Origin: a phage
Direction: 5' to 3' (one strand)
Length of the DNA: 64,000 nucleotides
Sequence record: PZ583742.1
The translations under genes were made by a program, and so were the position numbers. Positions 2,173 through 63,314 of the stretch are shown here, one piece after another; positions within the stretch are counted from its first letter, which is position 1, and each line of letters starts with the position of its first letter. The notes below the pieces were generated by a model. That model made no database searches. It was not told where the DNA came from and saw nothing but the letters and a program-made list of their open reading frames with translations.

Positions 2173-3851
2173 AGACTTTTAAGCTTAAGAAAGTTATCTA
2201 TAAAAATATTATGTCGGTTGGTGCTCAACCGATTACTGTTGAACTGGATAAAGTCCAAAAAACTCTGGTCACCGGCAAGAATGGTGCGGGTAAATCTACG
2301 TTCCTTGAAGCGGTTACCTTTGCTATGTTCGGTAAGCCTTTCCGTGATGTAAAGAAAGGCCAGTTGATTAACTCGAGCAACAAAAAAGATATGCTCGTTG
2401 AATTGTGGATGGAATATGATGGAAAAGAATACTATATCAAACGCGGGCAAAAACCCAATGTTTTTGAAATCTCTTGTGGCGGTAAACGTCTTGATGAATC
2501 TGCCAGCAGTAAAGACTTCCAAGCGGAATTTGAACAGCTCATCGGAATGTCCTATGCAAGCTTCAAACAGATTGTCGTACTCGGCACAGCTGGATATACC
2601 CCTTTTATGGGCCTATCCACTCCTGCAAGAAGAAAACTTGTCGAAGACCTTTTAGAGGTTTCTGTACTGGCCGATATGGATAAGCTGAACAAATCTCTTA
2701 TCCGCGAAGTCAATAGTCAAATCCAGGTGATGGATGTGCAGCATGACGGGATTGTTCAACAGATTAAAATCTATCAGGACAACGAAGACCGTCAAAGAAA
2801 ATTATCAGGTGATAATCTGTTGCGGCTGCAAACGATGTATGATGAACTTGCCACAGAAGCACGTGGAATCAAGACAACTATCGAAGAAGCAACAACAAGA
2901 CTGACCGAGATAATCTTGGGAGAAGACCCTGAGCATGAACTCACGAAGCTAAAGCAGGAATCATTTCTGATTAAGTCGAAGATAGACGATTACCGAAAGG
3001 TTGTTGGTCTGTACGAGAAAGGTGGTTGTTGTCAGACTTGTGCCAGTCAGTTGCATCCAGGAGACCCTATTGTCGCCAGGATTGAGTCAAAGATTGAAGA
3101 ATGTAATGCATCAGCTGATAAGCATAAAGCTCGCCAGAATGCTGTTCAAGAGCAATTTGATACGTATTCTGCTGCAAGACAAAACCAGCGTACAATAGCC
3201 CAAGACATTCAAACTAAGAAACAAACCTTAATCCAGACTGTTGAAAAGGCTAAAAAGGTTAAAGCATTAATCGAGCAAGCTAAGTCAGAATTCATTGACC
3301 ATGCAGCAGACATTAAAATGCTTCAAGACCAGCTTGATAAAATAGTCAAACAGAAATCTGACCTTGTGATGGAAAAATATCAACGTGGCATCCTAACGGA
3401 TATGTTGAAAGATTCCGGTATCAAAGGCGCGATTATTAAGAAATATATTCCTATCTTTAATAAGCAGATAAACGCTTACCTTAAAGTTATGGAAGCTGAT
3501 TATAGCTTTACGTTAGATGAAGAGTTCAACGAAACTATTAAATCTCGTGGACGTGAAGACTTCAGCTATGCATCATTTAGCCAGGGTGAAAAAGCTCGTA
3601 TCGATATTGCATTGCTGTTTACATGGCGTGATATTGCTGCGAAAGTATCTGGTGTTAATATTAACACCTTGATTCTGGATGAAGTTTTTGACTCGGCCAC
3701 TGATGTAGAGGGTGTTAAAGCAATTGCTACCATCCTGAACAAATTGGAAGACACCAACATCTTTATTATCAGTCACCGAGACCATGACCCGGAAGCATAC
3801 GGGCAACATCTCCAGATGAAAAAAGTTGGTCGATTCACTGTTATGGAATAA
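2169..3851 (+). CDS. 46: recombination endonuclease subunit gp46 (Rad50/SbcC-like ATPase)
   Basis: Walker A GKNGAGKST, central coiled coil with CxxC zinc hook, Walker B LILDEVFD; 560 aa; GTG start. Confidence 0.95.
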   Translation: MKTFKLKKVIYKNIMSVGAQPITVELDKVQKTLVTGKNGAGKSTFLEAVTFAMFGKPFRDVKKGQLINSSNKKDMLVELWMEYDGKEYYIKRGQKPNVFEISCGGKRLDESASSKDFQAEFEQLIGMSYASFKQIVVLGTAGYTPFMGLSTPARRKLVEDLLEVSVLADMDKLNKSLIREVNSQIQVMDVQHDGIVQQIKIYQDNEDRQRKLSGDNLLRLQTMYDELATEARGIKTTIEEATTRLTEIILGEDPEHELTKLKQESFLIKSKIDDYRKVVGLYEKGGCCQTCASQLHPGDPIVARIESKIEECNASADKHKARQNAVQEQFDTYSAARQNQRTIAQDIQTKKQTLIQTVEKAKKVKALIEQAKSEFIDHAADIKMLQDQLDKIVKQKSDLVMEKYQRGILTDMLKDSGIKGAIIKKYIPIFNKQINAYLKVMEADYSFTLDEEFNETIKSRGREDFSYASFSQGEKARIDIALLFTWRDIAAKVSGVNINTLILDEVFDSATDVEGVKAIATILNKLEDTNIFIISHRDHDPEAYGQHLQMKKVGRFTVME

Positions 3852-27836: not shown

Positions 27837-28548
27837 TGCTATTATTGACTTTGAAACTCTGGGAAACGGCTCGAAGGGAGCCGTTATTGACTTGGCCCTG
27901 ATTACATTCGAATCTGACCCTGCTATTGTGGAATCATTCGAAACCCTGGTTAATCGCGGCAAACGTATTAAGTTCAGTCTCGAATACCAAAAAGGAAAAC
28001 GTCTGTTTGACACAACAACCATGGGTTGGTGGAAAAAACAATCAGCAGAAGCACGTGTTAACCTGGCCCCTTCTGCACATGATGTTGATACTCTGACCGG
28101 TATCCAACAGGCGATTGACTATCTGAATGGCAATGGAATTAACAAATACGAAAGCCTTATGTGGTGCCGTGGAATGTCTTTTGACTTCCCGTTGTTTGTT
28201 GACCTTATCCGTGACCTGCAGCGCAATGAGGGTATCCCTGAGCGTGAATTGAATACCTATGACCTGGAGCCGGTTGTATTCTGGAACCAGCGAGATATCA
28301 GGACGGCAATCGAAGCCTTGTCACTCGTCCGTAAGATGTGTGAAACCCCATTACCGAAAGGGACTTTAGATGGATTTGTGGCGCACGATTCAGTGCATGA
28401 CTGCGCGAAAGATATTCTTATGCTGAAGTATGCCCAGCGCTATGCTCTTGGTTTAGATGAAGTTCCTTCCGAAGAAGATGCAGACCCGTTATCTTTACCA
28501 AAAAAAAACGATAAAAGTAGTGTACAAGGCCAATGGAAAGAGACATAA
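27829..28548 (+). CDS. dexA: exonuclease A DexA (DnaQ-like 3'-5' exonuclease)
   Basis: Exo I motif IDFETLG near N-terminus; 239 aa; position after dda. Confidence 0.7.
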   Translation: MIDAIIDFETLGNGSKGAVIDLALITFESDPAIVESFETLVNRGKRIKFSLEYQKGKRLFDTTTMGWWKKQSAEARVNLAPSAHDVDTLTGIQQAIDYLNGNGINKYESLMWCRGMSFDFPLFVDLIRDLQRNEGIPERELNTYDLEPVVFWNQRDIRTAIEALSLVRKMCETPLPKGTLDGFVAHDSVHDCAKDILMLKYAQRYALGLDEVPSEEDADPLSLPKKNDKSSVQGQWKET

Positions 28549-28549
28549 T
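28521..28549 (+). promoter_or_regulatory. early sigma70 promoter (inside the dexA 3' end)
   Basis: TGTACA, 17-nt spacer, CATAAT. Confidence 0.55.
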
Positions 28550-28550
28550 T

Positions 28551-28583
28551 ATCTCATCAACTACTGATGAGGATAACAAAATG
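28551..28583 (+). repeat. conserved 5' leader cassette, copy 3 of 3
   Basis: See 15381-15413; one substitution. Confidence 0.8.
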
Positions 28584-28838
28584 ATTACTTCTTTTGAAAT
28601 TGGCCAACAATATGAAATGTCCGCTCTTCAAGCTGCTGAAGCAGGTCTGACCGAAGCGTTTGAATGTGCATTTACAAATATTCGTGGTAAAATCTTTACT
28701 GTCAATAAAATTGCGGTATATGATAAAGAAACAGACATGAACAAAGGCATCTACTTGAACGTGTCAAACGCAAAAGGTCGTCGTGAAATTATGGTTGTAC
28801 AACCTAATCAACTGGCGATGTTCAATAAGGTTGCATAA
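28581..28838 (+). CDS. hypothetical protein (85 aa)
   Basis: Start after the leader (ORF-track start 28533 rejected). Confidence 0.4.
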   Translation: MITSFEIGQQYEMSALQAAEAGLTEAFECAFTNIRGKIFTVNKIAVYDKETDMNKGIYLNVSNAKGRREIMVVQPNQLAMFNKVA

Positions 28839-29590
28839 TGAAACCAGAATTTATTGACTTTGATGTTGTAAGTATGTATGTTCGCCCAATTAAACCATTA
28901 AAACTTGAGAAACAAAATATGACTATTGAAATTAACAAAACTTATCAACTGATTGAACCTATTATTCAAAACGCAGCTATGGTTTCTGGGTATAATACTC
29001 TGACTGATGCTTTAGGTGAAGGTGAATTTATTGTTGAAACTTTTGTAAAAAGTAACTGGTTTGATAAAGCATATATTCTACATGCACGTCGCCTTGATAC
29101 AAATAAAGTAGAAAAAATTATGGTTTATGAAGCTGAGATTGAACTCTTCAAAGAAGTTGAAGAAACTCCTATCAAAGTTGACAAAACCTATCAACTTGTT
29201 GGATATGGTGATTTTGATAATACTAATGCATTGAATGCCGGTTGGCGGGTGCTGAAAGGTATTTTTGGATTTGCTCCATTTACCGTTAAAACAGTTAAGT
29301 ACCACAATCACCAAAGCATCTTTGAATTTACTGCGGTCAATGAATCAGGTGACAATCTTGAAGCTATCCTTTATCCACGTGAATCTGTACTGCTGGAAGA
29401 AGTTAGCGAACTGGGTGACCCTATTGACTTGCTGTGTAAACCAGTTCAAATCAAACGCCCATTTAACAGTTCCATTTGTGGTTGGGTAACAGACCAGTGG
29501 ATTGAAGAGAGTGTTGAACTCCTGAACGTTGTCCATGCTGGTGAATTTACTGTTGTACCACGTTCCATGGTTGTTGAAATTTTTAATTAA
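28838..29590 (+). CDS. hypothetical protein (250 aa) with internal duplication and a C-terminal module shared with 29670-30230
   Basis: Repeated KTYQL segments; C-terminal WVTDQWIEESVELLNVVHAGEFTVVP. Confidence 0.45.
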   Translation: MKPEFIDFDVVSMYVRPIKPLKLEKQNMTIEINKTYQLIEPIIQNAAMVSGYNTLTDALGEGEFIVETFVKSNWFDKAYILHARRLDTNKVEKIMVYEAEIELFKEVEETPIKVDKTYQLVGYGDFDNTNALNAGWRVLKGIFGFAPFTVKTVKYHNHQSIFEFTAVNESGDNLEAILYPRESVLLEEVSELGDPIDLLCKPVQIKRPFNSSICGWVTDQWIEESVELLNVVHAGEFTVVPRSMVVEIFN

Positions 29591-30278: not shown

Positions 30279-30509
30279 ATGTTTAATGAAAATTGTGTGA
30301 CCACTTCCCTGACTGCTGAAGAGTTCTGGGACACTGCTGAAAGTGATAAAGTGATTGTGAAGAAAAACATCAATGAATTTCTTTGTACCACTGACATCAT
30401 TTATGTGTACGCAGATAAAGATGCAGAACTACCTAGCTATGCGCTGTTCCGCGAAGAATCAGAAGATGGCACAGATTTTTGGAAGGAGACTTATCATGTT
30501 GAAATTTGA
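30279..30509 (+). CDS. hypothetical acidic protein (76 aa)
   Basis: ATG with GAGGAG upstream. Confidence 0.35.
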   Translation: MFNENCVTTSLTAEEFWDTAESDKVIVKKNINEFLCTTDIIYVYADKDAELPSYALFREESEDGTDFWKETYHVEI

Positions 30510-30870
30510 AACTGATAAATGGTATTATTTTAAAGATAATGTTGCTGAAAGCAGATTTCGTTTGTTATGCTCTGATAATGATAATATAGCTGATGCTATA
30601 ATCAATGGTGAAGGATTTAGACCAGTCGGAATTGAAGGTGGTGATGTATATCGGATAGAATTTTCGACCGGTGGAATAGAGAGAATATTCATAAAGGAAG
30701 ATGAGCGTCGTTTCTTTGAAGAAGAAAAAGATGACGATACTGAAGATGAATGCGAAGACGCTGATGAAGCATTTGAACCAAGCGAATTCCCTTTGACTAA
30801 AATCACCATTTCTAATAACTCTGAAGCCTGGACCGTTTACCAGATGTTGAAAGCACACTTTAAGGAATAA
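30496..30870 (+). CDS. hypothetical protein (124 aa) with acidic tract
   Basis: AAGGAG SD then ATG 30496; EEEKDDDTEDECEDADE run. Confidence 0.4.
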   Translation: MLKFETDKWYYFKDNVAESRFRLLCSDNDNIADAIINGEGFRPVGIEGGDVYRIEFSTGGIERIFIKEDERRFFEEEKDDDTEDECEDADEAFEPSEFPLTKITISNNSEAWTVYQMLKAHFKE

Positions 30871-31329: not shown

Positions 31330-31353
31330 GCTTTAAAATATGTGACTTATAAT
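31329..31353 (+). promoter_or_regulatory. MotA-box middle promoter candidate
   Basis: TGCTTTA 31329-31335, TATAAT 31348-31353. Confidence 0.45.
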
Positions 31354-31359
31354 ACCTCC

Positions 31360-32067
31360 ATGAACTTAAAACAATTTATTGAAGAAAATCTTTTAACTAA
31401 GAACCCGAATCGTCTTAACGGTAATTTGTTCAAAAATGATTTAGAATTTGCCAAGAAATTCTGGGAAAAATATCCAGAAGAAGCAAATGTCTTTAGAACA
31501 GAAGCACTGCATTGTCAAGGAGGTAAAAGAGACCAACATCCGTACAATGAGGTCTGCTACCGTATTTTACATGATATAAAAGGAAAAGTCTTATGTAAGT
31601 GTGGTAAACCTGTTAACTATCATACATTTGCTACTGGCTACCATGAATTTTGTTCCGTTAAATGTCAGGGTGGTGGTATATTTGAAGAAGAGCGTATTTG
31701 TCCTGTTTGCGATACTAAGTATATGGCTACGAATAGGACTCAAAAATATTGTTCAGATTCCTGTGGTAAAGAAGCAAGAGATACTCAATCACTGGACTTG
31801 CCATATAGTCATTCCATAAAGATGAAAAAGCGCGACGTTTTGAAGTTAATTGAGGATACTCCGTATTGTGAAATTTGTAAAATAAAACTAACAAACAATT
31901 CGACTTCTTTATCAAAAAGCACTTGGTTCAATGTAGACCATTGCCACTCGACTGGTAAAGTCCGAGGTATTTTATGTTCAAAATGCAACATAGGCCTAGG
32001 AATGTTTAAAGACAATATTGCTTCATTAGAAACTGCGATAGAATACTTGAAACAAAGCAAGGAATAA
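31360..32067 (+). CDS. endonuclease VII-like His-Me finger nuclease with N-terminal zinc fingers (putative homing endonuclease)
   Basis: C-terminal DHCHSTGKVRGILCSKCNIGLG; several Cys pairs; first ATG (31360) near the predicted transcript start, so start uncertain. Confidence 0.55.
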   Translation: MNLKQFIEENLLTKNPNRLNGNLFKNDLEFAKKFWEKYPEEANVFRTEALHCQGGKRDQHPYNEVCYRILHDIKGKVLCKCGKPVNYHTFATGYHEFCSVKCQGGGIFEEERICPVCDTKYMATNRTQKYCSDSCGKEARDTQSLDLPYSHSIKMKKRDVLKLIEDTPYCEICKIKLTNNSTSLSKSTWFNVDHCHSTGKVRGILCSKCNIGLGMFKDNIASLETAIEYLKQSKE

Positions 32068-56625: not shown

Positions 56626-57570
56626 ATGAATTTAGATTTTTTACTCCCTGAAGAAGACCGTCAAAAAGAAGGTTTTCAGTTACTCGATTTTAGTCAGCTC
56701 ATCATGGCTGCAGCCTTTCAGGAATTCGGCAAAGACGCAGGCTTTCCGAAAGTAACAACTGCAATGACCAGACACTTGGTTCTGAACTCTATCCGAAAAA
56801 ATATCGTACAGTTCAAAAAGCTTGGTTATACAATTCCAATTATTTGTGTTGATAACTCGAAGAATGGCTATTGGCGCCGGACTAAATCTTATTATTATAA
56901 GAAAAACCGTGCAAAGGCTCGTGAAGAGTCTCAATTCGATTGGGAAGGTCTACATGCTGCCATGCACATCATCATCGATGAAATGGAAAAATACATGCCT
57001 TACATCGTGATGAATATGGATAAAGTCGAGGCTGATGACCATATTGCAGTATTAACGAAGTTGCTCACTAGTCTAGGACATCCGGTTATGATTGTTTCTT
57101 CGGATGGTGACTTTACACAGTTGCATAAATTCCCTGGGGTGAAACAATGGTCCCCGATGCAGAAAAAATATGTCAAAACTAAATCAGGCGATGCCCTTAT
57201 GGATTGCGTGACAAAGGTTGTTAAAGGTGACAAAAAAGATAACGTGTCAAGCATCAAGGTTCGTGGTGATTTTTATTATACTCATGAAGAAGGTGAACGT
57301 ACTCCACCAACCCGTGCAGCCGAGCTTGAACAAATTGCTCTCAACTATTACGACCATGACGTGCTGAAAACGCTTTTAACAGAAGAGCAATATAATAGAT
57401 TCTGTGAAAACCAATTGTTGATTGATATGGACTTTATCCCAACGGAAATATCCGCTTCAATCTTAGAACGATATAATAATTACGTTATCCCAGCCAAAAG
57501 TAAAGTTTATCCTTACTTTGTTAAGTCTGGTTTGTCTAAACTAACTGCAAACATTGCTGAATTTTATTAA
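56626..57570 (+). CDS. rnh: RNase H (5'-3' exonuclease, FEN family)
   Basis: GYWRR...YYYKKNR, EADDHIAV, SSDGDFTQLH match T4 RNase H. Confidence 0.9.
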   Translation: MNLDFLLPEEDRQKEGFQLLDFSQLIMAAAFQEFGKDAGFPKVTTAMTRHLVLNSIRKNIVQFKKLGYTIPIICVDNSKNGYWRRTKSYYYKKNRAKAREESQFDWEGLHAAMHIIIDEMEKYMPYIVMNMDKVEADDHIAVLTKLLTSLGHPVMIVSSDGDFTQLHKFPGVKQWSPMQKKYVKTKSGDALMDCVTKVVKGDKKDNVSSIKVRGDFYYTHEEGERTPPTRAAELEQIALNYYDHDVLKTLLTEEQYNRFCENQLLIDMDFIPTEISASILERYNNYVIPAKSKVYPYFVKSGLSKLTANIAEFY

Positions 57571-58122: not shown

Positions 58123-58787
58123 TTACGATTCGCATGCCTCCAAATAACAACCGATATATAAATGGTAAATCAGTATACCAACTGTACTTATCCATCAAAC
58201 AGCATTTTTCGGGTCGTTATGATATTATCAAATATAACTGGACCATGCGAATCTCCGATAGTGCTTATCAAAAACGTCGCGATAAGTATTTTTTCGAAAA
58301 GCTTAGCGATAAGTACACTCTTAAAGAATTAACGTTAATATTCATGTCAAACCTGGTTGCAAACCAGGATGCATGGATAGGCGATATAAGTGATGCCGAT
58401 GCTCTGATATTTTATAGAGAATACATTGGCCGACTTAAAAGAATTAGACAAGTATACGAAGATGATATAAAGAACATCTATTACTTCAGTAAGAAAGTCG
58501 AAGTCAAATCGCTCCAAGAGATTTTCGAGTATAATACTAAAGTGAATACAAGTTATATTTTCAAACTTCTCCAATCGAATGTTATCTCATTTGAAACGTT
58601 TTGTTTGCTTGATTCATTTTTAGGTATTATAAATAAACATGATGAACAGACTAACGACTTGGTTTGGGAAAAGTATTCAACCAAACTAAATGCCTATAAG
58701 AAAATCTTAAATATAGATTCTCTTGAAGCTCGTAAATTGTTCATCGAGACCGTTAAAAACTGTCAAATAACGCTTCAATCACTTTGA
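58119..58787 (+). CDS. 59: helicase loader gp59
   Basis: RYINGKSVYQLYL...ANQDAWIGDISDADAL match T4 gp59; 222 aa. Confidence 0.92.
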   Translation: MITIRMPPNNNRYINGKSVYQLYLSIKQHFSGRYDIIKYNWTMRISDSAYQKRRDKYFFEKLSDKYTLKELTLIFMSNLVANQDAWIGDISDADALIFYREYIGRLKRIRQVYEDDIKNIYYFSKKVEVKSLQEIFEYNTKVNTSYIFKLLQSNVISFETFCLLDSFLGIINKHDEQTNDLVWEKYSTKLNAYKKILNIDSLEARKLFIETVKNCQITLQSL

Positions 58788-58847
58788 AGTATAATTAATA
58801 CGTAATCAAAACAACTGCTAAAAATCAAATAATCTAAGGAAAATCAT

Positions 58848-59759
58848 ATGTCTATGTTTAAACGTAAAAACCCTGCTGACCTGGCTGCTTCCCTTAACGC
58901 TCTGAAAGGTGGTGCTGGTTTCTCTTCTGACGATAAAAAAGAATGGAAACTGAAAGATACTGATGGCGTCGGCTCTGCGGTTATTCGTTTCCTACCTTCT
59001 AAGAATGAAGAAAATCCATCTCCATTCATCAAGCTCGTTAACCACGGCTTTAAAAATGCTGGTCAATGGTATATTGAAAACTGTACTTCTACTCACGGTG
59101 ATTATGAAAACTGCCCTGTGTGTGCGTACATGAATAAGAATGACCTGTACAATACAAACGAATCCGAATATCGTAAACTGAAGCGTAATACTTCTTACTG
59201 GGCTAACATCCTGGTCATTAAAGACCCTGCAGTTCCGTCTAACGAAGGTCAAGTATTCAAATATCGCTTCGGCAAGAAAATCATGGACAAAATCAACCAG
59301 ATGGTTGAAGTTGATGTTGACATGGGCGAAACAGCTATTGATGTAACTTGTCCGTTTGAAGGTGCGAACTTCGTACTGAAATCTAAAATGGTTTCCGGTT
59401 ATAAAAATTACGATGATTCCAAATTCATGAACCAGTCTGAAATCGCTGGTATCAATGATGAAGCATTCCAGAAAAAACTTTGGGACGAAATGTCTGACCT
59501 GAATGAATTGCTGACATTTAAATCCCTTGAAGAGAATCAGAAGAAATTCTCTAAAGTAATGGGTACAGCTGCTCTCGGTGGTGCTGCTTCTAAAGCTGCT
59601 GCGCAAGCCGATAAACTGGGCGCTGACCTGGACGATTTTGATAAAGATATGGAAGACTTCACTTCCAGCAAACCTGCTAAGTCTGAACGCACTGCGACCG
59701 CTCCAAGCACTCCAGAGCCTTCTGATGATGGTCTTGACGACCTTCTGGCTGGCCTTTAA
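58848..59759 (+). CDS. 32: ssDNA-binding protein gp32
   Basis: Zn-site [26 protein letters not shown], acidic C-terminus; 303 aa. Confidence 0.95.
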
Positions 59760-59765
59760 TATAAG

Positions 59766-59788
59766 GGGACCTTCGGGTCCCTTTTTTA
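59766..59788 (+). terminator. intrinsic terminator (UUCG tetraloop)
   Basis: GGGACC-TTCG-GGTCCC then TTTTTT. Confidence 0.6.
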
Positions 59789-59802
59789 TTTTCAAAAAGT
59801 AG

Positions 59803-59831
59803 TGTACAAGTCCTTTGAGCTAAGGCATAAT
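59803..59831 (+). promoter_or_regulatory. early sigma70 promoter
   Basis: TGTACA, 17-nt spacer, CATAAT. Confidence 0.55.
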
Positions 59832-59869
59832 GATTCCATCAACTACTGATAACAACTGAGGAAATAAAA

Positions 59870-60232
59870 ATGGAAATCGGCAAAAAATATGAGTTCAATC
59901 CACATCGTATTAAATCTTTCATTGATATTAGTTCATCGAATGCTAGTATGGTCGACATCATCCAAGAAAATGGCGGTTGGTTTGAAGTTAAATCAATATC
60001 AAGTGCAGACGGCTATGATTATGTAACCGAAATCATTTGTGCTAATGGTGCAATCTATAATGATGATGGCATGGGTGATGATTATTTTGAACTTAGTGAA
60101 GAAGAGTTTTATTGCTTCCGTGAATACTCCAATTATACGAAAACACCTTCGGGGGCGGTTTCTATTAATTGTGTTGTAGATGCTAATAACGTCGACCAAA
60201 TCATTGAACTTCTACAAAAAGCTTTCAAATAG
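59870..60232 (+). CDS. hypothetical acidic protein (120 aa), paralog of 60581-60955
   Basis: Shares MEIGKKYEF, DDYFELSEEEF and C-terminal IIELLQKAF with the paralog. Confidence 0.45.
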   Translation: MEIGKKYEFNPHRIKSFIDISSSNASMVDIIQENGGWFEVKSISSADGYDYVTEIICANGAIYNDDGMGDDYFELSEEEFYCFREYSNYTKTPSGAVSINCVVDANNVDQIIELLQKAFK

Positions 60233-60235
60233 CAG

Positions 60236-60265
60236 TTTACAACGGGTCTATGATTATGTTATTAT
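60236..60265 (+). promoter_or_regulatory. early promoter with stem-loop
   Basis: TTTACA; GGTCTAT/ATAGACC hairpin; TATTAT. Confidence 0.45.
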
Positions 60266-60294
60266 AGACCTATCAACTACATGAGGAAAATAAA

Positions 60295-60522
60295 ATGGCT
60301 AAGGTTAATATTGATATCGTTGATTTTGAATACACTTACGAAGTTATCCGTAATCGCTATCCTTCTTTGAGTATGACTTACATTAAAGATACGCAATTCT
60401 TTAGTATTCAAATTGAAGTTCAAGGTCCTCTTGAAGACCTTACTCGCTTTATGGCTGATGAGTATTGTGACGGTATGCATGCTGAAGACGCTGAATTTTA
60501 TATGGGCTTAATTCAAGCGTAG
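60295..60522 (+). CDS. hypothetical acidic protein (75 aa)
   Basis: ATG after CATGAGGAAAATAAA leader. Confidence 0.4.
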
Positions 60523-60551
60523 TATACAAACCAATGGGAACATATTATCAT
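60523..60551 (+). promoter_or_regulatory. early promoter with stem-loop
   Basis: TATACA; GGGAACAT/ATGTTCCC hairpin; TATCAT. Confidence 0.45.
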
Positions 60552-60580
60552 GTTCCCTCAACAAAAATGAGGAAATTAAA

Positions 60581-60955
60581 ATGGAAACCGGTAAATTTTA
60601 CGTATTGGACCCTGCTGCTAAAAAACAATTCATCACTTCTGCCATTGCTGATGATAATTATAATTCATGCATGGTCAAGTTGATGGAACAACACGGCAAT
60701 TCCTTCAAAGTCCTGGATATGAGTTATATTGAAGGTGATTATTTTGTTGAAAAAGTTGAAATGAAAGATGGCACTATCCTGAATAGTATGGGTGGGCCTG
60801 ATGAGTACTTTGAACTCGCTGAATGGGAATTCCGTCACTTCCTGGAAGTTGATGGCGATGCTCCTGATGTTGATACCCAAACCATTCATGTGCAAGTCAA
60901 TCACAAAAATGCCGCAGAAGTCATTGCGCTGATTAAAGCAACTTTTGGGGTCTAA
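60581..60955 (+). CDS. hypothetical acidic protein (124 aa), paralog of 59870-60232
   Basis: See 59870-60232. Confidence 0.45.
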   Translation: METGKFYVLDPAAKKQFITSAIADDNYNSCMVKLMEQHGNSFKVLDMSYIEGDYFVEKVEMKDGTILNSMGGPDEYFELAEWEFRHFLEVDGDAPDVDTQTIHVQVNHKNAAEVIALIKATFGV

Positions 60956-60956
60956 C

Positions 60957-61211
60957 ATGACTAAAGATGATTTCCTGGATGCAGTAGAAAAAGCAAGCGA
61001 TCAATTTGAAGTAATGGGTGTACGAGTTCATAAAGACAGAAATTATGGTCTGGATGTTCAAACATACTCATTATGGCTTGTTGGTGAACACAGTCTTGCA
61101 ACCAATCTTGTTATGGGGGTTGATACTCATCCTTTATTAGTTAAGTTCAGAAGTATGGAAAAAGCCACCAAGGAAATGATTAAACTTGGCAAATGGCTTG
61201 ATAAAATTTAA
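60957..61211 (+). CDS. hypothetical protein (84 aa)
   Basis: ATG 60957 after GGGG (ORF-track TTG start 60945 less likely). Confidence 0.4.
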   Translation: MTKDDFLDAVEKASDQFEVMGVRVHKDRNYGLDVQTYSLWLVGEHSLATNLVMGVDTHPLLVKFRSMEKATKEMIKLGKWLDKI

Positions 61212-61218
61212 AAAGTAG

Positions 61219-61247
61219 TGTACAACCAAATGGGGCTATGACATAAT
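61219..61247 (+). promoter_or_regulatory. early sigma70 promoter
   Basis: TGTACA, 17-nt spacer, CATAAT; CCATACTGAGTTAAC leader. Confidence 0.55.
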
Positions 61248-61288
61248 GGTCCCATACTGAGTTAACAACTAAAACACTGGAGAATAAA

Positions 61289-61528
61289 ATGAAATTACAA
61301 CGTGAGAGCATCAAAGATTCAGAAGTTAAAGGCAAATGGTACTTTACAATCCAGGGTAACAATCCAGAAGCCCTGGAAAAAGCTGAAGAAACTTTATGTG
61401 CGATGGGTTGGAAAGATGAGTGTGATGGTTGTCCTCTTTATGAAGATGGTAGCTCATCTGGTTTCTGGATTCACCACTCTGATGTTGACCAATTTAAAGC
61501 TGACTGGAAAGTCGCTAAGAAAGCGTGA
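61289..61528 (+). CDS. hypothetical protein (79 aa)
   Basis: GGAGAATAAA then ATG. Confidence 0.4.
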   Translation: MKLQRESIKDSEVKGKWYFTIQGNNPEALEKAEETLCAMGWKDECDGCPLYEDGSSSGFWIHHSDVDQFKADWKVAKKA

Positions 61529-61538
61529 GGAAAATATA

Positions 61539-63314
<1,776 letters not shown>

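Follow-up and report, generated by a model that had tools for sequence, protein, structure and literature searches.

Introduction

In phage T4, the accessory region between gene 32 and frd has the order 32, frd.3, frd.2, frd.1, frd, with one frd.2 only. Frd.2 proteins are small, non-essential and early, T4 frd.2 itself being described as an early gene (Kim et al., 2025, PMC12152347). They have been placed together with GoF and MotB.1 in an "LSm-like fold" family, whose predicted N-terminal five-stranded barrel resembles LSm/Hfq, and a role in RNA binding or as RNA chaperones has been raised as a hypothesis for all three (Kim et al., 2025, PMC12152347). In a genome-wide CRISPRi-ART knock-down, frd.2 was the only T4 gene of unknown function to be called "Fit" (PMC11879866). 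Regulatory cassettes of the PeSL (early promoter and stem-loop) type have also been described (Arbiol, 2010, PMC2839356), and the concept has been extended to T4/PST (Comeau, 2014, PMC4122927). Here we analyze two neighboring genes, designated A and B, in a 64,000-nucleotide stretch of phage DNA (sequence record PZ583742.1, hereafter the window) that belongs to a T4-type, Gaprivervirus-like myovirus. Their alignments and profile matches make it almost certain that A and B both belong to the Frd.2 family (PF03197) of T4-type phages, within which they diverged long ago. A pair of this kind is in itself ordinary and already known, being annotated as frd.2a/frd.2b in JS10 and SP18. The explanation that we rate best overall, and that we hold only tentatively, is that A and B are an old Frd.2 pair, brought together in shuffled cassettes and acting as protein-binding early factors.

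Results

Two divergent Frd.2 proteins downstream of gene 32

Gene A (59870..60232, + strand) encodes a protein of 120 amino acids with an isoelectric point (pI) of 4.23, and gene B (60581..60955, + strand) one of 124 amino acids with a pI of 4.50. Both products have a net charge of -12 and lengths that fit the family norm of about 115-130 amino acids, and both genes have a GAGG Shine-Dalgarno sequence about 8 nt 5' of the ATG. The two proteins match PF03197 (FRD2, "Bacteriophage FRD2 protein") with E=8.8e-36 (123 bits) for A and E=9.8e-33 (113.2 bits) for B, which is about four times the curated gathering threshold of 29 bits, and they both match phrog_622 (E=9.6e-42 and E=2e-32, respectively). 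Aligned to each other by BLASTP, they are 31% identical over their full length (E=6e-16). A sequence-only reading of this DNA had singled out two similar acidic, paralogous open reading frames (ORFs) in the 32-frd region that have N-terminal, central and C-terminal motifs in common, and this description was borne out: the motifs are MEIGKKYEF in A and METGKFYVL in B at the N-terminus, DDYFELSEEEFYCF and DEYFELAEWEFRHF in the center, and IIELLQKAFK and VIALIKATFGV at the C-terminus. When placed in an alignment of 50 diverse members, A and B both contain the signature residues K5, Y7, F17, N24, G35, F38 and G60, followed by YFE72-74, EF79-80, F83, E85, N107 and F119.

The two genes have different closest relatives. 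A is the T4-type ortholog, 79% identical to T4 Frd.2, and B is of the JS98/JS10/VR7 type, 88% identical to JS10 frd.2a (Dhakavirus) and 33-35% identical to T4 Frd.2. At unsaturated distances, the ratio of nonsynonymous to synonymous substitution rates (dN/dS) is 0.06-0.23 for A and 0.11-0.23 for B. Both are real genes held by purifying selection. A search of NCBIfam matched nothing, and a literature search for the FRD2 protein or PF03197 by name found nothing relevant.

Subfamilies, copy order and distribution

Homolog searches with A and with B returned two non-overlapping ortholog sets, and their joint alignment resolved into two clean clades. The same division is found in a tree of every Frd.2-family member extracted from ten phage loci. 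Clade A holds window A, SP18 2a, T4 Frd.2, JS10 frd.2b and a Gelderlandvirus copy; clade B holds window B, SP18 2b and JS10 frd.2a; and a clade C unites RB68 Frd.2 with copy 1 of Mosigvirus LF82-8. Further lineages are formed by LF82-8 copy 2, by the Jiaodavirus JD18 protein and by the three tandem copies of a Vequintavirinae (rV5-like) phage. Judged from this tree, the Frd.2 family splits into at least three to four subfamilies, which co-occur in variable arrays. The order of the copies also varies, from A-frd.3-B in the window to A-B in SP18, B-A-orf-frd.3 in JS10, frd.3-A in T4 and frd.3-C in RB68.

Frd.2 is kept in most T4-type phages. Among 50,697 phage records, A was matched by 888 records in 971 places and B by 569 records in 651 places; because places outnumber records in both searches, roughly 80 records should hold two or more copies. 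A profile search against 1.84 billion representatives delineated a small, compact phage family (34 representatives at E<1e-10, about 90-140 amino acids long) and yielded no informative domain fusions. One of the 34 is a giant RTX-type repeat protein, which we judged artefactual. Large RTX/HCBP_related repeat proteins score against both the Frd.2 profile and PF03197 (up to 37 bits) by means of repeats that match positions about 24-70. We considered these proteins as Frd.2 relatives and rejected them, their FRD2 matches being summed sub-threshold repeats; such scores probably arise as an artefact of summing over many copies of a beta-hairpin motif, and they are a possible source of false FRD2 annotations.

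The family extends to a phage of the rV5 type. Escherichia phage vB_EcoM-LTH01 (Vequintavirinae) carries three tandem PF03197 genes (2618-3760 of its locus, E=6e-17 to 9e-28), all of which pass the Pfam threshold and which adjoin DNA polymerase fragments and an HNH endonuclease. The Frd.2 family is therefore not confined to the Tevenvirinae, unlike the title of the 2025 paper implies.

Organization of the locus

The + strand order at the locus is rnh-dsbA-33-59-32, then the accessory genes A-frd.3-B-orf84-frd.1-orf113, then frd-td, with rnh at 56626-57570, gene 32 at 58848-59759, and frd at 61877-62458, followed by td. Compared with the loci of T4, JS10, SP18 and RB68, A and B lie in the same genomic zone as T4 Frd.2, the gene 32-frd accessory region. 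A megablast search with 59700-61900 matched 272 phage records, the best of which are Gaprivervirus-like coliphages (TH44 at 96.8%, also VR20 and SP18). Immediately after gene 32, a terminator scan placed an intrinsic terminator at 59763..59784 (+ strand) with a 9-bp GC-rich stem, a UUCG loop and a T-run. Its fold has a free energy (dG) of -14.7 and z=-3.3, and none of 200 shuffles was as stable. The predicted terminator would isolate the downstream accessory genes, including A, from gene 32 transcription.

Between A and B lies frd.3 (60295..60522, + strand; 75 amino acids, pI 4.14; PF05798, E=1.7e-37). Orf84 (60957..61211, + strand; 84 amino acids; phrog_4423, with no assigned function) begins 1 nt past the stop codon of B, and it accompanies B-type Frd.2 in JS10, SP18 and RB68. 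It is followed by frd.1 (61289..61528, + strand), whose product is a Frd.1 homolog (DUF5417; PF17438, E=1.5e-35), and by orf113 (61539-61880, + strand; 113 amino acids; phrog_8592), upstream of frd. The counterpart of orf113 in EAWsc9 (3397-3738 of its locus) is annotated as a "type II toxin-antitoxin system PemK/MazF family toxin", a label for which searches of Pfam (E up to 1) and NCBIfam (E up to 0.1) gave no support. Frd.3 aligns with the phrog_1764 profile only at positions 317-390 of 391, and since it covers only the end of that profile, some members of the Frd.3 family may be C-terminal domains of far longer proteins. An Rfam scan of 58600-62000 (E up to 0.1) matched no known RNA family.

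Repeated early-promoter cassettes

One common unit emerges when the four intergenic regions 5' of A, frd.3, B and frd.1 are aligned. It consists of AAAAAGTAGTnTACAA (an extended -35), 17-18 nt, a -10 hexamer and ATGAGGAAAwTAAAATG. The early promoter match of A (59803..59831, + strand) reads TGTACA-17-CATAAT and sits inside the extended AAAAAGTAGTGTACAA motif. Upstream of frd.3 (60236..60271, + strand) it reads TTTACA-18-TATTAT, with an 11-bp hairpin at 60244-60271 around the -10 (z=-2.31), and upstream of B (60523..60557, + strand) it reads TATACA-17-TATCAT (60523-60551), with an 8-bp hairpin at 60536-60557 around the -10 (z=-2.13). The fourth cassette, that of frd.1 (61219..61255, + strand), again reads TGTACA-17-CATAAT and has a hairpin at 61230-61255 (z=-2.46). 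Three of the four cassettes, those of frd.3, B and frd.1, thus have a hairpin of 8-11 bp around the -10 (z=-2.1 to -2.5), whereas the A cassette has just a weak fold (z=-0.43). Of the claim that both acidic genes have their own promoter/stem-loop cassette, the early-promoter match holds for A and for B, and the stem-loop for B alone.

Over the whole window, the + strand has 15 sites of the motif GTnTACA-N15-19-YAnHAT and the - strand none, against an expectation of 0.5±0.7, and four of the 15 sites fall within this 1.5-kb stretch; the other + strand sites include 15350, 15659, 16877, 25157, 28520, 29598, 39348, 40847, 43281, 45526 and 56948. A generic sigma-70 promoter scan found no enrichment over shuffles (11 sites versus 10.7 expected); the T4-specific extended motif is needed. 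By their motifs, the cassettes read as T4-type early promoters, and the + strand sites would show where the early transcription units of the window lie.

We also considered independent transcription as a trait of the family and rejected it: the A-type copy of JS10, T4 frd.2 and the rV5-like copies all lack a promoter match that belongs to them alone. In T4 (2462-2479 of the locus) and RB68 (2462-2480 of the locus), frd.2 is preceded by a GC-rich hairpin, AGGGGCTATCAAGCCCCT (dG about -12 kcal/mol). This hairpin comes without a promoter match, and the regulatory layout of these loci hence differs from that of the window cassettes.

Cassette shuffling and the origin of the pair

The accessory genes and the genes that flank them tell different stories of descent. 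The flanking core proteins have low identity to their T4/JS10 counterparts (65/71% for gp32 and 65/62% for Frd), and the accessory proteins are highly similar to those of JS10 (Frd.3 96%, B 88%, orf84 92% and Frd.1 95%), with orf113 98% identical to that of RB68. A itself is close to T4 Frd.2, yet just 57% identical to the A-type copy of JS10. Since accessory ORFs reach 88-98% identity where the flanking gp32 and Frd reach 62-71%, we infer a recent lateral exchange of accessory cassettes between genera.

One such event can be delimited on both sides. The frd.3 unit is present in the window and in EAWsc9 and absent from SP18, where the spacer between A and B is identical to the window A-frd.3 cassette as far as GAGGAAAATAAAATG, after which the coding sequence of B follows directly. 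Because the SP18 spacer joins directly to B at GAGGAAAATAAAATG, the frd.3 unit is a precise indel. It is bounded by the direct repeat ATGAGGAAAwTAAAATGG, which has six copies in the window against 0.05 expected. The repeated ribosome-binding site (RBS)/start element at the left edge of the unit is ATGAGGAAAATAAAATGG (60281..60298, + strand), where the SP18 junction maps, and that at its right edge is ATGAGGAAATTAAAATGG (60567..60584, + strand). With its edges in these positions, the unit shows that the cassettes serve also as recombination joints. In this mosaic accessory region, ORF units are gained, lost and reordered by recombination inside the repeated, PeSL-like promoter/RBS cassette.

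On this evidence, it is cassette recombination, and not local duplication, that has put two Frd.2 subfamilies side by side. A recent local tandem duplication, leaving redundant or decaying copies without separate function, could be read from two family members that lie 350 bp apart on the same strand. We regard it as extremely improbable. A and B share less than a third of their residues, both have closer orthologs in other genera (A in T4, B in JS10), both are under purifying selection, the unrelated frd.3 intervenes, and the copies stand in a different order in JS10; the tree, the cross-genus identities and the dN/dS values together rule out a duplication that is recent. The word "duplicated" in the sequence-only reading is thus misleading: the similarity of A to T4 and of B to Dhakavirus, the low mutual identity and the differing orders between genera speak for a mosaic assembly.

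Predicted structure and distant relatives

AlphaFold2 models built with a 33-sequence alignment were confident and reached a predicted local distance difference test (pLDDT) score of 88.4 and a predicted TM (pTM) score of 0.68 for A, and 86.8 and 0.66 for B. Both have the same order of elements, namely β1, α1, α2, β2, β3, β4, α3, β5, a low-confidence linker and a C-terminal helix. The predicted fold begins with an SH3/LSm/Tudor-like beta-barrel that carries a two-helix insert. After this N-terminal barrel come the conserved YFE-x4-EF-xx-F-x-E segment, a linker that varies and, at the C-terminus, a neutral beta-alpha unit. The fold corresponds to no common enzymatic domain, and it is not predicted to be an enzyme.

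Searched with Foldseek against the PDB, neither model had a match at E<0.05 (best E=0.058). The weak matches, at E=0.06-3, are to small SH3/Tudor/KOW/chromo barrels, including eS4, the RNA polymerase-interacting domain of CarD, the Tudor domain of UvrD/PcrA, 53BP1 and FeoA, and the top 50 PDB neighbors of either model include neither Hfq nor Sm structures. When the family alignment was used as a profile against PDB sequences, the matches were at chance level only, the best being MRCK kinase at E=0.03. Against BFVD, Foldseek gave 64 matches at E≤1e-3, nearly all of them uncharacterized T4-type phage proteins, and the neighbors include VR7 GoF (E=5e-6, from model A) and T4 P39415 (MotB.1; E=1.1e-4). 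At the level of predicted structures, these matches independently reproduce the GoF/MotB.1/Frd.2 grouping (Kim et al., 2025, PMC12152347).

The window also contains a distant Frd.2 relative in the goF position, at 30496-30870 (+ strand), just after cef (PF24050, 30279-30509). This ORF matches no Pfam family. It matches a deep Frd.2 profile at E=7e-4 over profile positions 2-92, that is, the whole N-terminal domain, and ranks third-best of 300 window ORFs; its hhalign alignment is colinear, and it has the same architecture of barrel, acidic linker and C-terminal helix ("ITISNN...YQMLKAHFKE"). Nearby, a 250-amino acid ORF (28838-29590, + strand) has two apparent barrel-like repeats ("INKTYQLIEP..." and "VDKTYQLVGY...") fused to a MotB C-terminal domain (PF17613 positions 118-154, E=3.7e-7), with a weak Frd.2-profile match (E=0.04), and a MotB.1-like ORF of 101 amino acids (28533-28838, + strand) lies ahead of it. 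Such a fusion of barrel and MotB domain could point to a functional connection with MotB, a DNA-binding protein. A cysteine-rich ORF of 241 amino acids with an HNH-like motif (31342-32067, + strand), located between the goF-like ORF and gene 39, is probably a homing endonuclease insertion.

Acidity as a bulk property of the barrel

Charge distribution analysis shows that the acidity noted in the sequence-only reading is real, and that it is conserved as a bulk property of the barrel. In all 50 members of the family alignment, the barrel (residues 1-86) is negative, with a median net charge of -9 and a range of -15 to -3; the C-terminal unit, by comparison, is neutral. Acidic residues reach 80% or more in just three columns, namely E74, E79 and E85, all inside YFE-x4-EF-xx-F-x-E, so that three of about 21 acidic residues are conserved; K5 is the single column that is at least 80% basic. 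The family has a median pI of 4.45, with one subclade at 5.1-6.1.

Among the small ORFs of the window, 19% have a pI below 4.6, and 12% match or surpass the negative charge per residue of A and B (about -0.10). The equally acidic small ORFs with known roles are those for AsiA and Spackle, which act as inhibitors by binding a protein target and are not DNA mimics. Because acidity here is a bulk barrel property, with few conserved columns and with neighbors as acidic as AsiA and Spackle, it is not diagnostic of DNA mimicry.

Discussion

We suggest, with some reserve, that Frd.2 proteins are non-enzymatic, protein-binding modules used during early host takeover. Early in infection, A and B would attach to a protein of the host or of the phage, which is probably basic, and the two paralogs would differ in target specificity. 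The basis for this proposal is the barrel, acidic in 50 of 50 members, in which the only conserved charged columns are E74, E79, E85 and K5; the roles of the equally acidic AsiA and Spackle, and the lack of an RNA effect of wild-type GoF and MotB.1 in reporter assays (PMC12152347), point the same way. Given that the barrel is negative throughout the family (net charge between -3 and -15) and has a single conserved basic residue, direct binding of RNA or DNA is unlikely. Several points weigh against the proposal. A GoF pull-down recovered GoF alone, the family having no known binding partner. LSm-like folds often bind RNA, and the point mutant GoF D25Y stabilizes an mRNA (Kim et al., 2025, PMC12152347). 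The phenotype data disagree, in that a T4 frd.2 amber mutant plates normally (PMC12152347) and the CRISPRi-ART "Fit" call of frd.2 is marginal (0.83, p=0.027, versus 3.29 for gene 32; PMC11879866). In addition, transfer of function by fold is weak, since there is no significant solved-structure neighbor, and promoter activity is predicted from sequence only.

The most substantial alternative, which we nevertheless consider unlikely, is that Frd.2 proteins are LSm-like RNA-binding or RNA-chaperone proteins that act post-transcriptionally on the stability or translation of mRNA from phage or host. The predicted five-stranded barrel is LSm/Hfq-like (PMC12152347), the models of A and B match GoF and MotB.1, GoF(D25Y) raises mRNA half-life, and the weak Foldseek matches include ribosomal protein eS4 and the LSm domain of Edc3. 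Wild-type GoF and MotB.1, however, had no RNA effect in reporter assays (PMC12152347), and the GoF allele that is active, a gain-of-function change, has lost an acidic residue. To this must be added the negative barrel of every member, with its one conserved basic residue, the lack of Hfq or Sm among the closest PDB neighbors, and the lack of any significant PDB match. Far less probable still is a FeoA/DtxR-type, SH3-like metal-associated or small-ligand-binding module, in which the glutamate cluster of E74, E79 and E85 would coordinate a cation. FeoA is among the weak PDB matches, and the family has three invariant glutamates plus a near-invariant histidine at position 100; but the FeoA-type matches are insignificant (E>1, TM about 0.25), His100 is replaced by Asn in window A, and the glutamates lie among core aromatic residues and may be structural.

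The sequence-only reading had put forward DNA mimics or decoys. A mimic would copy the DNA backbone with arrays of surface carboxylates and so tie up a DNA-binding protein of the host, for instance a restriction enzyme, a nucleoid protein or a defence nuclease. A and B are indeed small, early and acidic (pI 4.2-4.5, net -12), their acidity is a family trait of the barrel, the predicted fold is non-enzymatic, and variable multi-copy arrays in a hyperplastic region fit an arms-race gene. Against mimicry, their charge density is equalled or exceeded by 12% of small window ORFs, just three acidic columns are conserved, one subclade has a pI of 5.1-6.1, searches of Pfam, of the PDB by profile and of the PDB by Foldseek gave no sequence or structure match to known mimic families, and the equally acidic AsiA and Spackle are protein-binding inhibitors. 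We regard DNA mimicry as improbable, the conserved columns and the less acidic subclade leaving it without specific support; a broad acidic decoy keeps some plausibility. A version of the latter, which we rate a little above mimicry and still as unlikely, is that the Frd.2 subfamilies (A, B, C and others) form a diversified arsenal of acidic SH3-like decoys, each neutralizing a different basic host nucleic-acid-binding factor; the targets may include a defence nuclease, a nucleoid protein such as H-NS/StpA, Rho or RNase E. Were this the case, phages would mix subfamilies by promoter-cassette recombination to suit their hosts, and it would account for the standing of frd.2 as the sole "Fit" gene of unknown function in the T4 CRISPRi-ART screen.

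Whichever function applies, the subfamily structure, the presence of the family outside the Tevenvirinae, the cassette-bounded shuffling at the locus and the charge argument against nucleic-acid binding are additions of this work, which narrow the hypotheses and provide natural variants for testing them.

Comparison with known systems

The proposal of protein-binding early factors has its closest functional parallels in AsiA and Spackle, which are comparable to Frd.2 in size, pI (4.4-4.5) and early expression; their folds and families (PF09010, PF25676) are unrelated to it. The phage DNA-mimic proteins T7 Ocr, T4 Arn and PBS2 Ugi are likewise small, acidic, early and non-enzymatic, and in these general respects resemble Frd.2. 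They differ in that Frd.2 has no sequence or fold match to them, a lower charge density and few conserved acidic positions. GoF and MotB.1 are predicted to have the same N-terminal barrel with helical insert as A and B, and the C-terminal parts differ between the subfamilies of the GoF/MotB.1/Frd.2 group.

With regard to regulation, the locus resembles PeSL systems in having repeated units of early promoter, stem-loop and Shine-Dalgarno sequence between small ORFs of a hyperplastic region, with matches to the T4-type promoter (TTTACW-N17-TAYWAT) directly 5' of A, frd.3, B and frd.1. The ORF-sized indel also has its junction between the -10 and the ATG, where PeSL crossovers were mapped. The window hairpins differ from those of PeSL cassettes in that they enclose the -10 instead of lying upstream of the promoter and have no U-tract, and the A cassette has no convincing hairpin. 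PeSL cassettes are associated with mini-circles, the cassettes of the window being known from their sequence alone.

The nearest relatives of the pair itself are the Frd.2 proteins of T4, JS10 and SP18. T4 Frd.2 agrees with A and B in size (about 120 amino acids), in acidity and in its slot between gene 32 and frd. It differs in that T4 has its one frd.2 after frd.3, whereas in the window the T4-type copy precedes frd.3 and the B-type copy, which represents a separate subfamily from T4 Frd.2, occupies the canonical slot. The frd.2a/frd.2b genes of JS10 (Dhakavirus) and SP18 (Gaprivervirus) come closer, the same two subfamilies being co-resident downstream of gene 32. In JS10 the order is B-A, and the A-type copy, only 57% identical to window A, begins 4 nt after B without a promoter of its own. 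The SP18 copies are 99% identical to A and 89% identical to B, and they differ from the arrangement in the window in that A and B follow one another with no frd.3 between them.

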